Shown here: piece after piece, positions 3,047-35,150 of the stretch
How positions within the stretch are numbered: the first letter of the stretch is position 1
Layout: each line of letters opens with the position of its first letter
Source of the DNA: Methanocellales archaeon
Lineage (GTDB): Archaea > Halobacteriota > UBA148 > JAUWXC01
Direction of reading: 5' to 3'
Assembly (NCBI GenBank): GCA_030018435.1
Contig: JASEEY010000002.1
Coordinates: forward strand, 28,544-92,543
DNA length: 64,000 nucleotides
Position numbers and translations under genes: made by a program
The notes under the pieces: model-generated
Databases searched by the model: none
Seen by the model: the letters and a program-made list of their open reading frames with translations, nothing else
Told to the model about the DNA's origin: nothing

Positions 3047-3127
3047 ATGAAAAAATTTGAATTTCTGGAGCGTCAGTACAGGCGCCTTGAAGAAAAAGAT
3101 GAGTTCACCCCTCTGGATGAGATCTGA
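3047..3127 (+). pseudogene. 26-aa chimeric mini-ORF: archease-like N-terminus plus antitoxin-like C-terminus
   Basis: MKKFEFLERQYRRLEEKDEFTPLDEI*; start matches archease MKKFEFLD, end matches the antitoxin at 34962 (EEFTPLDEI*). Confidence 0.55.
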
Positions 3128-3189
3128 TGGTGTTCTCCGAAGGTGCTCCGATAACTATTATTAATCAAGTGACAAATGAAGACACCAAC

Positions 3190-3612
3190 ATGAAGAAATT
3201 CGAGTTCTTGGATTTTGCGACTGCGGACGTTTGCTTTAGAGCATATGGTGCAACGCTGGATGAATTATTTGCTAACGCCGCTCTAGCGATGCTCGAGGTC
3301 ATGGTGGAGACGAAGAACGTCGAGCCGAAGATTACGAAAGAAATTGAAGTCAAGGGCGAAGACCTGAAGTCGTTGATGTTCGATTGGTTAAACGAATTAC
3401 TCTTTTACGTCGACTCCGAAGGTTTGGTGTTTTCCAGGTTCGATGTCGAGGTGGATGAAAAACGGATGGCGCTCAGCGCAAAGGTCTCAGGCGAGCGGGT
3501 AGACCTCCAAAAGCACAGGATTAAAACTCAGGTAAAGGCCTGCACGTATCACAAGATGGAGGTCGAGAAGCGCGATGGAAAATGGATGGCGCAGGTGATC
3601 GTCGATGTGTGA
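3190..3612 (+). CDS. Archease (RtcB activator)
   Basis: FEFLDFATADV...AYGATLDELFANAA...VKACTYH...IVDV C-terminus. Confidence 0.93.
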   Translation: MKKFEFLDFATADVCFRAYGATLDELFANAALAMLEVMVETKNVEPKITKEIEVKGEDLKSLMFDWLNELLFYVDSEGLVFSRFDVEVDEKRMALSAKVSGERVDLQKHRIKTQVKACTYHKMEVEKRDGKWMAQVIVDV

Positions 3613-31345: not shown

Positions 31346-32407
31346 TCAACATAGCAACGTTATCATCATAGCAGGTATTATGAAGAACGCTATGATTATA
31401 TAGATTATTGCATAGCTCCCATGCGCTTGCACGGCATCAGCCAGTCGTTCGGCAATTCCTATTGGCACCTTTTTTAATGGATACCATATACATGTTCCGA
31501 TTACGTTGAAGAATAGGTGTGCAAGGGCAGCTGCTATGGCTATCGTATTCCCTGTCGCTAGGGCTGCTATTAGAGCAGTCACCGTCGTGCCGATGTTCGC
31601 TCCCAGTGCGTATGGAAATACCATTGCTGTAGTTGCTAAACCAGCTCCAGCGAGCGGAACTGCCAACGAGAGTACGATGCTACTGCTTTGAACGATCGAT
31701 GTGAATACCATGCCCGTTGCAAAACTCTTTTTTGAGTTGCCAAATGTCGTGTCTATCGCCCTTCTCAATCTACCAGTCATTATGACCTTCATGGAATCTG
31801 TCATGAGTTTCAACCCGACGAATAATAAAATAATGAATGCAATCATCAAGACGATGGGAGGGATATGTCGCGCGAAAACGTCTACGATGGGTCCGGTTAC
31901 AATCTTCACAGGACTTGGAAATTTGACTGCCTCTTTTCCGACCAATGACGTGGCAAGGCTACTTGATACTATGCCCAGAAAATTCGTATAATACTGAAGA
32001 GGGAAAATTATCAGAACAGCCAGAATGTTAAAGACATCATCTACCGTACTGGCTGCAAAGGCCCTCTTGAACTCTGCCTTCCGTGTGATGTGTCCCAAGG
32101 AGACCAATGTATTTGTCACGGTCGTGCCCATGTTTGCACCCATTATAATTGGTATTGCCGTTCCTAGGTCCAGAGTACCGCTGGCTACCAGGGCTACGAC
32201 CATGGAAGTCGTTGCGCTGCTGCTTTGAATCAGGGACGTTGCCAGCATGCCAGCAAATAACCCTGCTATGGGATTGGGCACACTTCCGAGCACGAGGTCT
32301 GCAAAGGGTTTTCCCATAGCCTTTGCTGCATCACCCATCCCGACGATTGATATAAGAAAGATATATAAACCCACGATGAAAATTATTGCCTTTTTTCTAT
32401 CCTCTAT
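31346..32407 (-). CDS. Na+/Pi cotransporter (NptA family); probable ATA start
   Basis: Two QSSS motifs and GANMGTT/GANIGTT; GGGAGGT SD 6 nt before an in-frame ATA at 32407. Confidence 0.88.
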   Translation of the reverse strand: MEDRKKAIIFIVGLYIFLISIVGMGDAAKAMGKPFADLVLGSVPNPIAGLFAGMLATSLIQSSSATTSMVVALVASGTLDLGTAIPIIMGANMGTTVTNTLVSLGHITRKAEFKRAFAASTVDDVFNILAVLIIFPLQYYTNFLGIVSSSLATSLVGKEAVKFPSPVKIVTGPIVDVFARHIPPIVLMIAFIILLFVGLKLMTDSMKVIMTGRLRRAIDTTFGNSKKSFATGMVFTSIVQSSSIVLSLAVPLAGAGLATTAMVFPYALGANIGTTVTALIAALATGNTIAIAAALAHLFFNVIGTCIWYPLKKVPIGIAERLADAVQAHGSYAIIYIIIAFFIIPAMMITLLC

Positions 32408-32453
32408 ACTACTACCTCCCGATGAACCTACGAATCAATTCCATATAAAAATC

Positions 32454-33005
32454 TCATTTCCTTTTCTTCCTCTCCTCTTTAATCAGCTGATACACATGTC
32501 CTTTGAAGTTTGTCCCAATCAACTCTGTAAGGGTATCTGTAACACTGGATGCAAATGAGACCATATCCGCATCGGTGATGATGCCGAGCAATTTGCCATC
32601 CTCGACGACGGGTAATCTTCGTATGTCCTTCTCCAGCATTTTTTGCGCCGCACTTGATATACTCTCATCGGGTTTGATGGTAACAAGTGGTTGAGACATC
32701 ACGTCCTTTAACATCACTGAGTCAGGTGCTATGCCCTTGGACATGACCTTTTGTATCATATCTCGTTCAGTCACGATGCCGATGGGTTTGTCATCCTCGG
32801 TTATTACCAGGCTGCCTATCTTGCGCTCCGCCATCTTTCGCGCCCCTTCTGATGCCTTCATGTTACCATCAGCTGTGATGACATTTGTGGTCATGATCTC
32901 CCGCACAGGCATCTTCATTGCCATTCTGTTTAGGCACTTATCGCAGTAAATCTGCTCGGACTCAATTGGTATGGGTGCTCCACAAAATGCACAAATTCTT
33001 CCCAT
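32454..33005 (-). CDS. CBS-domain protein with an N-terminal zinc ribbon
   Basis: CAFCG...CDKC, then tandem CBS (IGIVTERD, LGIITDAD). Confidence 0.88.
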   Translation of the reverse strand: MGRICAFCGAPIPIESEQIYCDKCLNRMAMKMPVREIMTTNVITADGNMKASEGARKMAERKIGSLVITEDDKPIGIVTERDMIQKVMSKGIAPDSVMLKDVMSQPLVTIKPDESISSAAQKMLEKDIRRLPVVEDGKLLGIITDADMVSFASSVTDTLTELIGTNFKGHVYQLIKEERKKRK

Positions 33006-33077
33006 ATCTTCACCTTTCTTTCATTAAATTATTGTCTTGTTTTGTGTTATATACTTGATGTTATTTGCGGCTTTAGA

Positions 33078-33094
33078 AGAAAGTGTTTTATAAT
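33078..33094 (+). promoter_or_regulatory. BRE/TATA promoter for the leuA leader
   Basis: A-rich BRE-like stretch followed by TTTATAAT about 27 nt before ATG 33121. Confidence 0.6.
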
Positions 33095-33120
33095 CTGATG
33101 CACAATTAACAACTGGTATT

Positions 33121-33165
33121 ATGATGAAAGAAAGTAAAGCGAGGGATCGCCTTTTACTACATTGA
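33121..33165 (+). CDS. Putative leucine-rich leader peptide (uORF) [14 protein letters not shown]
   Basis: ATG at the predicted TSS; tandem CTT TTA CTA codons; stop 16 nt before leuA. Confidence 0.6.
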
Positions 33166-33181
33166 GTCGATTTGCAAGGGC

Positions 33182-34681
33182 ATGCCTAAAAACGTTAAGA
33201 TATTTGATACCACGCTCAGGGATGGGGAGCAAACGCCTGGTGTATCTTTAACATCTCATAACAAGCTCGTTATAGCGCATCAACTGGATAAATTGGGCGT
33301 TGACATAATCGAGGTTGGCTTTCCGATTGCATCGAAGGGCGAAAAGGAATCAGTGAGAAAAATCGCTCATGCTGGGCTCAGTTCAAAGATATGTGGACTA
33401 GCTAGGGTGACCAAATCCGATATCGATGCATGTCTGGATTGTGGAGTGAACATAGTCCATACCTTCATCCCAACCTCGGACATCCAGGTCAAGTACACGA
33501 TCAAGAAGAGCAGGGAAGAAGTACTGCAGCTTGCGGTGGAGGCGGTGGAGTACATCAAAAAACATGGTGTAACGTGCCTCTTCTCTGCCATGGATGCTAC
33601 CAGGACTGACATGGATTACCTGCTCAAGGTCTATCAGAGCGTTGAAAAGGCTGGCGCAGACATCATCAACGTTCCGGACACCGTGGGCGTGATGATACCA
33701 TCGGCGATGCATAAATTCATCGGCCAAATTCACGATGCGGTAAAGGTCCCCATCGACATACACTGTCATAACGATTTTGGGCTGGCTGTAGCGAATTCTC
33801 TAGCGGCGGTAGAAGCGGGAGCGCGACAGGTTCAGGTGACCGTCAACGGTCTTGGCGAACGCGCAGGAAATGCTTCCTTGGAAGAAACGGTCATGAGTCT
33901 TCATTCCATCTATGGTGTCAAAACGAACATCAAAACCAAGTATCTGGTTGAGACGTCGCGATTAGTGGAGCGTCTGTCTGGAATTCACGTACCGCCTAAC
34001 ACGCCCGTGGTTGGGGAAAATGCCTTCTCCCATGAATCCGGCATTCATACACATGGCGTGCTCAGGAGAGCAGAGACCTTTGAGCCAGGGGTGATGACAC
34101 CTGAAATGGTGGGGCACAAACGCCGCATAGTAGTTGGAAAGCATGCCGGGAAGCATGCTGTGAAGAAAACGTTGCATGAAGTCGGATTGAGGCCGACTGA
34201 TGCGCAGCTTGATGAAATAATGCAACGTATAAAGGACTTGGGCGACAAAGGGAAACGCGTGACGGATGCAGACCTTTACGCGATTGCTGAAGCCGTCATG
34301 GGCGAAGTGACCAAAGGGGAGCAGGCGATTGTGCTAGAGGAGGTCTCGGTTATGACCGGCAGCAAGATCACACCCACCGCTGTGATCAAAGCAAAGGTTC
34401 ACGGAAGGCAAAAAAGAGGAAGCCAGACCGGAGTTGGTCCAGTCGATGCTGCGCTGAAAGCGGTGCAAGCCATTCTTGGAAAGAAGGCCAAAATAAAATT
34501 GCGGGATTTTAGATTAGAGGCTATCACTGGCGGTTCTGATGCGCTGGCTGAGGTGACGATTGGCGTGGAGGATGAAAAGGGGAATATCGTCACCGCAAGA
34601 GCTGCACGCGAGGACATCGTCATGGCGTCTGTGGAAGCATTAGTAAGCGCGATAAACAGGCTGATGCTGACGAAACGATGA
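33182..34681 (+). CDS. leuA: 2-isopropylmalate synthase
   Basis: [28 protein letters not shown]-terminal regulatory domain; FSAMDATRT favours LeuA over CimA. Confidence 0.85.
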
Positions 34682-34705
34682 TGGTTAGCTCCAAGTTTTC
34701 AAGCT

Positions 34706-34972
34706 TTATTCGATCCAATGATATGCTTTACTCCTCGGCAGTATCTTTGCAACTAAGATGTCTTTTTCCTTAATTACGTATATTGCTCTATAGTTTCCTA
34801 TTCGTAGTCGATAGTATTCTTTTTTTGGTCCCACTAATTTCTTAATATCTGCTCTGGGCCTAGAATGATAAGGGTCTTCGCTCAAAGCCCTTTTGATACG
34901 TTGCTGTGTCTCCGCATGCAAGCTCTTGAGTTGTCGCCTTGCGGTGTCCGAAAGGAGAACATTATATTTCAT
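34706..34972 (-). CDS. RelE/ParE-family toxin
   Basis: MKYNVLLS...DIKKL...YRLRIGNYRAIY...RSKAY. Confidence 0.9.
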   Translation of the reverse strand: MKYNVLLSDTARRQLKSLHAETQQRIKRALSEDPYHSRPRADIKKLVGPKKEYYRLRIGNYRAIYVIKEKDILVAKILPRSKAYHWIE

Positions 34973-35150
34973 CAAGAGGGGTAAACTCCTCTGTTTCAAC
35001 TATGCGATCAATTTCTTCAAAAAAGGCGATCTTCCTTGCATTTTCCATCAACCGGCGGATAATCTCTTCGTAGGTCTCCCCCTTCTTCCCAAATTCCCGG
35101 AGCTCTTCACGGGTGTCCTTAGTGATTTGAATGGTAGTTGCTTCAGTCAA
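34962..35150 (-). CDS. Antitoxin (RHH-like, TTIQI...GETYEEIIRRL)
   Basis: Overlaps the RelE start; acidic C-terminus. Confidence 0.85.
   Translation of the reverse strand: MTEATTIQITKDTREELREFGKKGETYEEIIRRLMENARKIAFFEEIDRIVETEEFTPLDEI

Follow-up and report, generated by a model that had tools for sequence, protein, structure and literature searches.

A candidate leucine-sensing +1 frameshift site ahead of leuA in a Methanocellales archaeon and its relatives

The leuA leader in the window

In the window, by which we mean the whole 64,000-nt stretch of Methanocellales archaeon contig JASEEY010000002.1 that was analyzed, a gene that we take to be leuA is preceded by an upstream open reading frame (uORF) containing three leucine codons (Table 1). 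Direct reading of the sequence shows that the uORF runs for 14 codons from ATG 33121 to a TGA at 33163–33165, three codons after the TTA, and that ATG 33182, which opens leuA, lies 16 nt downstream of the uORF stop. While frame 0 ends at this TGA, the leuA frame continues in +1: from 33152, it reads TTT TAC TAC ATT GAG TCG ATT TGC AAG GGC and is stop-free up to ATG 33182. The open leuA frame measures 517 aa against 499 aa for the gene, leaving 18 open codons upstream of ATG 33182. A Shine–Dalgarno (SD)-like element, GAGGGATC, ends 2 nt before the CTT codon at which this change of frame would occur. We propose that the leader is likely a leucine-sensing programmed +1 ribosomal frameshift switch, based on the conservation of these parts in relatives and on the identity of the codon that follows the putative slip codon.

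A preliminary description of this DNA had already pointed to a leader uORF with CTT TTA CTA 16 nt 5' of leuA, which agrees base for base with our reading, and to a +1 frame open into leuA from the CTT-T at 33152 and an SD-like sequence just 5' of the CTT, both of which are borne out here. The TATA box that it placed at 33087–33094 corresponds to the TATA-like sequence in Table 1. Archaeal TATA boxes are usually centred about 26–27 nt before the transcript start; with this spacing, the transcript would begin at about 33115–33118, with little or no untranslated sequence ahead of the uORF.

Table 1. Features at the leuA leader and its surroundings in the window
Feature	Position	Strand	Basis or remark
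Divergent gene, 183-aa protein with a CBS-domain pair	32454–33005	-	
Purine-rich GAAGAAAGTG, possible B recognition element (BRE)	33076–33085	+	5' of the TATA-like box
TATA-like box TTTTATAAT	33086–33094	+	Sequence; same stretch kept in three other genomes of the family
Leader ORF, frame 0, 14 codons plus stop	33121–33165	+	Equivalents in 63 of 96 leuA loci
SD-like element GAGGGATC, proposed stimulator pairing with the 16S 3' end	33141–33148	+	Duplex energy
Proposed shift heptamer CTT TTA C (P-site CTT would re-pair on TTT; A-site TTA is the putative sensor)	33151–33157	+	Exact position of the slip putative
Leucine codons of the leader (CTT, TTA, CTA)	33151–33153, 33154–33156, 33157–33159	+	Sequence
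Linker of 10 codons, open in +1, shift site to leuA	33152–33181	+	Sequence
leuA, 2-isopropylmalate synthase, 499 aa, own ATG	33182–34681	+	NF002085/NF002086 scores

Conservation of the leuA cassette across the phylum

The leuA loci compared comprise a first set of 30, in which the window's locus is joined by top leuA matches from 29 genomes among 40 related ones, and 67 further upstream regions fetched, non-randomly, from the matches listed to cover the families that we distinguish by code (f1, f2, and so on); one region lacks the DTTLRDG anchor, leaving 96 loci. The underlying search of the phylum covered 401 genomes, 318 of which gave a match at E up to 1e-150. A mechanical test required an ATG-started ORF that places leuA at +1, a CTT or TTT codon, a leucine codon next to it, and a leuA frame open to the anchor. 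This test was passed by 63 of the 96 loci, compared with 0 of 96 when leuA was placed at +2. The full motif also occurs only twice in the 1.02-Mb host genome, once at leuA and once within an ordinary coding frame. With a conserved, nearly unique motif and such a contrast between registers, the leader feature is not a chance occurrence.

Passing loci come from families f1, f2, f4, f5, f7, f8, f11, f15, f16, f20, f27, f29, f30, and f33, and include all four genomes of the window's own family (f1) and all three of its sister family (f2). Extra samples from f5 (13/13 loci; 15 genomes searched, with one f5 genome also in the first set) and f14 (13/13 anchored loci) passed throughout, bringing the total to 15 coded families. 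The preliminary description had named relatives as the place to look for these elements, and the uORF, the slippery YTT, the following leucine codon, and the open +1 frame do recur together in these 15. Families f3, f6, f9, f12, f13, f17, f31, and f35 do not carry the cassette, and their leuA genes begin at an ordinary ATG, accompanied in many cases by a TATA box or an SD sequence. In one locus of family f13 (L096, genome G023), the leader reads ATG AGG GAT and then GAT GTT CTA, with two leuA-frame ATGs inside the cassette; this lineage may have replaced the shift by direct initiation.

The geometry of the 63 passing loci is variable in length and constant in register. The putative P-site codon is CTT or TTT in all of them, the leader ORFs stop 0–9 codons past the leucine codon, and the distance from the slip codon to the conserved Asp of the anchor takes seven lengths (12–18 codons), always in the +1 register. 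At 27 of the 63 loci, the stretch of leuA frame from the upstream stop to DTTLRDG contains no ATG, GTG, or TTG, so that +1 ribosomal frameshifting is the sole evident route to the enzyme there. At many loci, the TGA of cTGAGGGAT shuts the leuA frame directly before the cassette, and in one complete genome the first canonical in-frame start of leuA is codon 49, past DTTLRDG. Families f1 and f2 keep an ATG 8 codons before the conserved Asp, the counterpart of ATG 33182 being present in 4/4 and 3/3 genomes, respectively.

A pattern blind to frame gave the same register. We searched 185,579 genomes, one per prokaryote species, for GGGATCG-NN-TT-N-TA followed by 28–58 free bases and TTYGAYACNAC, and found at least 120 stretches. 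Among those listed, 116 are in the +1 register, with 31 spacings permitted, and 115 have both an open frame and an ATG-started uORF, 66 of these being without a canonical start. Five exceptions among the listed stretches are bacterial records (two Omnitrophota, Edaphobacter, Verrucomicrobiota, and Gemmatimonadaceae). The archaeal matches listed belong to Methanosarcina, Methanolobus, Methanococcoides, Methanohalophilus, Methanomethylovorans, Methanosalsum, Methanothrix/Methanosaeta, Ca. Methanocrinis, Ca. Methanoperedens, ANME-2 lineages, Ca. Mnemosynella, and one "Nanoarchaeia" bin. Among the matches listed, one, from a "Methanocellales archaeon", has the window's spacing and is identical to window positions 33061–33260 at 178 of 200 positions.

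The codon after the putative slip site follows the pathway

The strongest support for a switch, as far as sequence can give it, is that the codon after the putative slip codon follows the pathway to which the downstream gene belongs. We described the cassette with a register-fixed regular expression (codon 1, N[GC]N; codon 2, [GA][AG]T; codon 3, any; codon 4, [ACT]TT; codon 5, the sensor) that also needs an ATG or GTG uORF, a frame-0 stop within 10 codons, and an open gene frame. It matches 77 of 123 leuA loci, as against 1 of 123 in the +2 register. One of the 77, an f6 locus whose sensor position encodes Glu, matches by chance; in all 76 true leuA cassettes, drawn from 14 families, the sensor codon specifies leucine (TTA 41, CTT 18, CTA 12, CTC 4, TTG 1). 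The +1 residue overlapping this codon is less uniform, being Tyr in 53 cassettes, Phe in 17, Ser in four, and Leu and Trp in one each. Where cassettes with two Phe residues in the +1 frame are listed, TTC encodes the first of them, and frame 0 thereby retains CTT (Leu).

Upstream of the leuA paralogue, the sensor position holds a different amino acid. Our sample consists of 20 upstream regions from related genomes plus that of the window genome's own paralogue (L002), 21 in all. Nine match the expression, in families f5, f8, f11, f13, f14, and f15, and in all nine the sensor is ATT (Ile); five of the nine lack a canonical start. Three paralogues of family f4 are variants, with AGG GAT T[AG]T ATT ATT behind a GTG or CTG, and the remaining nine (f1 twice, f2, f3, f6 twice, f9, f12 twice) start ordinarily. 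The paralogue leaders at L327–L329, L331–L335, L337–L339, and L342 (families f4, f5, f8, f11, f13, f14, and f15) read RDRF-I, SDCF-I, TDRF-I, or RDYI-I, with the gene in +1.

A third gene is led by the same kind of site. In five complete Methanosarcinaceae genomes, AGGGATCGNYTT gives 25 matches, compared with four for the reversed control, and two of the 25 lead a gene other than leuA. Its leader consists of an SD sequence and then ATG AGG GAT CGN TTT TGT TG, encoding MRDRFC before the stop, with one or two extra codons in 3 of 12 loci; the sensor is TGT (Cys) in 12/12, and the +1 frame of the gene opens at the TGA of aTGAggg. The product is a winged-helix protein of 108–130 aa (HTH_24, 23.1 bits against a cut-off of 21.9). 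A search for homologous loci returned 16, of which the 12 with a PPSAK anchor all carry the Cys cassette, six of them without a canonical start before the anchor (L308–L316 and L319–L321, Methanosarcinaceae; for example, L308 at about 1495–1890). Genes next to the winged-helix gene belong to the TPR, Fic, or PHO4 families or to none, and give no clue to its role. In three complete genomes, the pattern TGAGGGATNNNNTT occurs 36 times, compared with 12 for its control; at the 30 loci read, a +1 ORF of at least 80 aa is found only at leuA, the paralogue, and the winged-helix regulator, the others being at most 67 aa long.

In the haloarchaeal class, a known Rfam motif occupies a comparable place. 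RF03001 (leuA-Halobacteria) matches 52 of 61 genomes of the class, as well as the control Haloferax volcanii. At 32 loci, an ATG-started uORF encloses the 53-nt motif and ends in AAGREI-x plus one to five codons and a stop (for example, L251 at 440–492 and L253 at 470–522; further loci are L275–L304). In 31/31 anchored loci, the gene downstream occupies the +1 register with no stop across the site, over 14 spacings. GAAATTC is invariant (32/32), and the codon after ATT is Leu at 20 loci, Arg at nine, His at two, and Pro at one; a narrower first expression had caught 19 haloarchaeal loci, all with Leu and an anchor. In all nine haloarchaeal genes compared, of 31, the product is nearer to the window's paralogue (430–480 bits) than to its LeuA (336–375 bits). 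The haloarchaeal site would fit an isoleucine codon (ATT) acting as sensor ahead of the paralogue, although GAA precedes it here; RF03001 may be the site of a frameshift or of a leader peptide, and not a structured RNA. Some of these loci could use direct initiation, since a GTG in the gene frame stands 5 nt before the ATT in 14 of the 31 anchored ones. Against window positions 32000–35000, the RF03001 model gives no match at E up to 10 (threshold 47.9 bits; haloarchaeal controls 68–69 bits). The comparison with this motif that the preliminary description suggested is thus apt with regard to the kind of uORF and the +1 gene, and not with regard to the gene itself, because the motif precedes the other paralogue rather than leuA.

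SD-like element, RNA structure, and codon usage

We calculated duplex energies between the cassettes and the 3' end of the host genome's own 16S rRNA (...GGATCACCTCCT), assuming that this one tail can stand for those of all genomes. Bases 33139–33150 of the window pair at -11.8 kcal/mol, the 0.25 percentile of 20,000 random 12-mers of the genome (mean -3.3, first percentile -10.1, 0.1 percentile -13.1 kcal/mol), and most cassette variants pair at -11.5 to -11.8 kcal/mol. In family f7, a variant sequence in the same place, GCAGGTGGTC, forms an uninterrupted helix of -12.4 to -12.6 kcal/mol; a different sequence that would pair equally well looks like compensation. Before ATG 33182, in turn, the SD-like pairing of -5.2 kcal/mol is weak and uninformative, being near background (gene-start median -6.0, random median -4.2).

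Alifold run on 39 register-anchored representatives gave no conserved RNA structure, and single-sequence z-scores are about zero. An Rfam scan of positions 32000–35000 at E up to 10 gave nothing in the leader and two chance-level matches elsewhere. A scan for terminators and sigma-70 promoters, the latter irrelevant for an archaeon, gave no terminator-like site on the plus strand and one match on the minus strand. In the draft genome, 36 tRNA genes were found, including one for tRNA-Leu, and the assembly is too incomplete to judge the tRNA complement.

In Methanosarcinaceae, the two codons that flank the slip and sensor codons are often complementary (CGA..TCG, CGC..GCG, CGT..ACG; compared over positions -5 to 0 and +7 to +12 around the slip codon), and the sensor codon would sit in the loop of the resulting small hairpin; this complementarity is absent in the window. 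Across the pattern-match loci L100–L219, 0.61 of cells are paired, compared with 0.16–0.53 for slid partners, lending the Methanosarcinaceae slip-site hairpin weak support.

RNA fragments at the leader of a relative

For one relative with a 4.1-Mb genome close to Methanosarcina (locus L220), four RNA runs, from a search with a 5-kb stretch of this genome, were mapped onto L220:2700–3200. Three of them, from 2026, have inserts of about 30 nt (151-letter reads with about 120 of adapter), and about 6–13 in 100 of each run were read. The leader is on the minus strand, with ATG 2971, TTT 2941–2939, TTA 2938–2936, the uORF stop at 2917–2915, and the leuA ATG at 2925–2923. Sense-strand depth is 44–122 (X22, X23) and 11–66 (X24) over 2921–2971, falling to 0.2–8.8 over 2904–2920 and 0–2 over 2870–2903; further in, depth values cannot be relied on, as the sequenced strain departs from L220 at many sites. 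Clusters of fragment 5' ends lie at 2973, 2957, and 2953 and of 3' ends at 2940–2942, 2923–2925, and 2919, and the main fragment class is centered on the slip site. No inserted or deleted bases at 2% or more were seen in these fragments, at a depth of 88–122 over the run of five Ts. The end of an RNA-seq contig falls at 2979, 8 nt ahead of the leader ATG. On the opposite strand (plus), short-insert fragments at 3108–3200, with depth up to 68 and about 130–230 nt upstream of the leuA leader, stem either from a small divergent transcript or from the neighboring gene's 5' end.

Enzyme identity and neighboring gene

The leuA product (L001) scores 768.9 bits with NF002085 and 559.5 bits with NF002086, the 2-isopropylmalate synthase equivalog (cut-off 532), and its best solved relatives are 2-isopropylmalate synthases. 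Its DTTLRDG motif, at residues 9–15, carries metal- and substrate-binding residues in this enzyme family. The host genome, of 1.02 Mb in 29 contigs and 95% complete, has two more leuA homologues, L002 (54% identity; 513 bits with NF002086) and L003 (32% identical to leuA); both have ordinary starts, and neither has a cassette ahead of it. From these scores, we take L001 to be LeuA and the L002 type to be probably citramalate synthase. That the enzyme might prove to be citramalate synthase (CimA) had been raised in the preliminary description. LeuA lies above the NF002086 cut-off and L002 below it, and the paralogue in relatives has its own cassette with an isoleucine codon. The leucine codon before leuA and the isoleucine codon before the paralogue in relatives also give indirect support to the prediction that the window's enzyme would act on 2-oxoisovalerate rather than pyruvate. 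In family f3, which also lacks the leuA cassette, the paralogue matches (G005, G007, G009, G010, and G012) contain one or two in-frame stops (TGA, TAA), which may reflect decaying genes, recoding, or assembly errors.

On the other side of the leader, the divergent gene (Table 1) encodes a protein whose best NCBIfam matches are the CBS regions of regulators, all far under their cut-offs. The 115-nt gap between this gene and the uORF must contain both promoters.

A proposed mechanism and its alternatives

We infer from the arrangement described above that the ribosome slips, exactly where it does so, what the SD-like element contributes, and how leucine affects the outcome; the switch would work as follows. 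The mRNA would start just before ATG 33121, leaderless or nearly so, and the 14-codon leader would be translated until CTT 33151 occupies the P site, with GAGGGATC, 2 nt behind, pairing with the 16S 3' end and the A site presenting TTA. With ample charged tRNA-Leu, the TTA would be read and translation would stop three codons later at the TGA, yielding no LeuA from that ribosome. With charged tRNA-Leu scarce, the A site would stay empty, the P-site tRNA would slip from CTT to TTT, and the shifted ribosome would read the 10-codon linker in +1 into leuA, producing an N-terminally extended enzyme. In the window's lineage, ATG 33182 may provide shift-independent basal expression. The preliminary description had proposed a shift of this kind, like that of prfB, at CTT-T with a hungry leucine codon and an SD-like aid, and the conservation of the cassette, the leuA genes without start codons, and the 16S pairing all lend it support. 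Judged part by part, +1 frameshifting is very probably in use at leuA in this clade, it probably senses leucine through the A-site codon, and the odds are slightly in favor of the window's own copy depending on the shift rather than on ATG 33182.

Several points weigh against this proposal. The frameshift itself is a prediction from sequence comparison. The sampled loci were hand-picked from score-ranked lists and are mutually related, so that the counts are not independent and overstate the independence of the evidence. Stop codons bound the slip position only to about five codons, and because f1 and f2 keep an ATG, leuA could be made without a shift there. The constancy of leucine is partly confounded, as aromatic +1 residues likewise need T as the first base; leucine follows the ATT in only 20 of the 32 haloarchaeal loci, which is evidence against a simple universal rule of NTT plus Leu; and several paralogue cassettes (TTT ATT, ATT ATT, GAA ATT) would re-pair poorly after a +1 slip. 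Among the SD-like elements, GGGGAAT variants pair weakly (-5.5 to -6.9 kcal/mol) and f5 has no pairing (-1.2 kcal/mol). Codon rarity finds no support as a basis for sensing: TTA and CTA make up 12.3 and 10.4% of the genome's leucine codons, and TTA is not rare. Finally, the main fragment class at L220 overlaps a predicted hairpin (2949–2926) and may represent nuclease-resistant RNA rather than ribosome footprints.

In the window's lineage, the leader could instead act as a leader peptide with no frameshift, pausing at the three leucine codons to gate initiation or reinitiation at ATG 33182, the open +1 frame then being a relic. This ATG is kept in all f1 and f2 genomes, Methanosarcina-sized genomes and part of f8 retain one too, and the SD-like pairing of ATG 33182 is neither good nor bad. 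Such control is nevertheless unworkable at the 27 of 63 loci that have no start codon at all, which the alternative of reinitiation or attenuation offered in the preliminary description fails to explain, and even f1 and f2 preserve all cassette parts along with an open +1 linker. Neither a terminator/antiterminator pair nor a conserved structure was found at the leader, and fragment depth at L220 is small over the position expected of a ribosome that starts at the internal ATG; we regard this explanation as unlikely. A genuine +1 frameshift that senses no leucine, being constitutive or slipping elsewhere (AGG-G, GAT-C) in answer to another signal, would fit a shift window about five codons wide, the preference for T-initial codons that aromatic +1 residues would likewise create, the variable codon after ATT in haloarchaea, and the fact that TTA is not rare. 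It does not account for a fifth cassette codon that tracks the pathway (Leu in 76/76 leuA and Ile in 9/9 paralogue cassettes), for frame 0 remaining Leu while the +1 residue can be Ser, Leu, or Trp, for the use of TTC, where listed, in the cassettes with two Phe residues, preserving the frame-0 CTT, or for f5, which lacks the AGG GAT part yet retains CTT CTT, and we consider it improbable.

Three further explanations dispense with a ribosomal shift altogether. ATT and ATC are listed among the rare starts of genetic code Table 11, and an ATC or ATT is kept in the +1 frame of most cassettes (GGG-ATC), so that the motif could be an unusual start signal in the leuA frame. With such a start, however, the SD-like bases would touch the start codon with zero spacing, f7 and f5 have no ATY at that place, and the fixed-register upstream ATG-uORF and pathway-matched codon would go unexplained, all of which makes noncanonical initiation very improbable. 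Slippage of RNA polymerase on the T run, or a sequencing error there, would likewise yield the +1 frame, and runs of four to six Ts are present in many cassettes; yet f20, f8, f5, and f14 have TTTCTA or CTTCTT, with T runs of at most three, the relative's RNA lacks indels at 2% or more over its five Ts, and over 100 independent assemblies, complete genomes among them, share the feature, so this explanation is hardly credible. The conserved bases might, in the window's lineage, double as a promoter, with CTTTTACT (33151–33158) as the TATA box of a leaderless leuA mRNA starting from ATG 33182. The geometry fits f1 and f2, at about 27 nt from box center to ATG 33182, whereas other families have a 16-nt distance or no ATG, CTTTTACT is a poor TATA match, and the register and sensor codons would be left without a reason; we give a promoter next to no weight.

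Relation to known systems

In the bacterial gene for release factor 2 (prfB), a short frame-0 ORF precedes the main protein in +1, and a P-site CUU slips onto UUN with an SD-like element upstream. The leuA leader resembles it in having a short frame-0 ORF that ends soon after the site, a CTT-T slip site, an SD-like element 2 nt upstream, and the main ORF in +1, as well as in a proposed shift when the A-site codon is read slowly as the pathway's own product runs short. It differs in that the A-site codon is a sense leucine codon, which would sense charged tRNA-Leu, and not the UGA by which prfB senses release factor, and also in its archaeal host, its amino acid biosynthesis gene, and its leader of 5–20 codons. 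The leuA leader would thus work like prfB without being a member of that family, having TTA rather than UGA in the A site and leuA rather than the gene for RF2 downstream.

Shifts to +1 at hungry codons are known from yeast Ty1 and ABP140 (CUU-AGG-C) and from starvation in E. coli. In these cases, the shift reflects a fixed low tRNA abundance or a translational error, while in the cassettes described here the codon matches the pathway (Leu, Ile, or Cys), and such tracking of the regulated pathway implies that the codon is used as a sensor. Bacterial leu leaders likewise place a short ORF with leucine codons before a leucine gene so that translation reports leucine supply; the leader has three leucine codons in the window but one or two in most relatives. 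In contrast with the bacterial leaders, the archaeal leader has no alternative terminator/antiterminator hairpins that we could find, and its proposed read-out is a change of frame, not termination. RF03001 shares with the window the enzyme family, the phylum, a site within an ATG-uORF, and the +1 gene, and differs in its GAAATTC heptamer with an isoleucine codon, in a hairpin that is absent in the window, and in a gene closer to the paralogue. In eukaryotes, antizyme uses a +1 frameshift as a polyamine sensor controlling its own pathway. The two systems would be alike in using +1 frameshifting as metabolic feedback on the pathway controlled, and antizyme differs in its A-site stop codon, downstream pseudoknot, small-molecule effector, and domain of life.

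In the parts of the literature available to us, we found no description of a frameshift or a leader ORF at archaeal leuA. The accessible text of a 2021 review of archaeal recoding describes the concept of hungry-codon frameshifting and reports one programmed frameshift, a -1 event in Saccharolobus, besides hypothesized cases (PMC8211752). A 2016 review of frameshifting mentions neither isopropylmalate, leuA, Methanosarcina, nor leucine in the portion available, and the main texts of two small-ORF papers (PMC11456600 on M. mazei and PMC10117724 on H. volcanii) are, as far as they could be consulted, silent on leuA and frameshifts; their supplementary small-ORF lists may contain such leaders. 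The term "leuA-Halobacteria" is absent from the texts searched.

Implications

Taken together, the leuA, paralogue, and winged-helix leaders suggest, with somewhat better than even odds, that Halobacteriota have a modular family of amino acid-sensing +1 frameshift switches, in which a cassette of a short leader, an SD-like G-rich element, a slippery NTT, and one sensor codon would be fitted to different genes: Leu for LeuA, Ile for the probable citramalate synthase, including the RF03001 loci, and Cys for the winged-helix regulator. Gene models would need correcting, as many methanogen leuA and paralogue genes are untranslatable from canonical starts, and the orphan Rfam motif leuA-Halobacteria would gain a function. 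The cassette is present in the genetically tractable Methanosarcina, and RF03001 in Haloferax volcanii, making the proposal directly testable, and the sensor-codon design could serve as an engineering part. Archaea are not known to have T-boxes or classical attenuators, and how they sense amino acid supply for biosynthetic genes is little understood. If the proposal is true, this family would represent the first cellular +1 programmed frameshift in archaea and a translational counterpart of bacterial attenuation and T-boxes, and a frameshift switch that the ribosome itself reads would be new to archaea as a principle of regulation.

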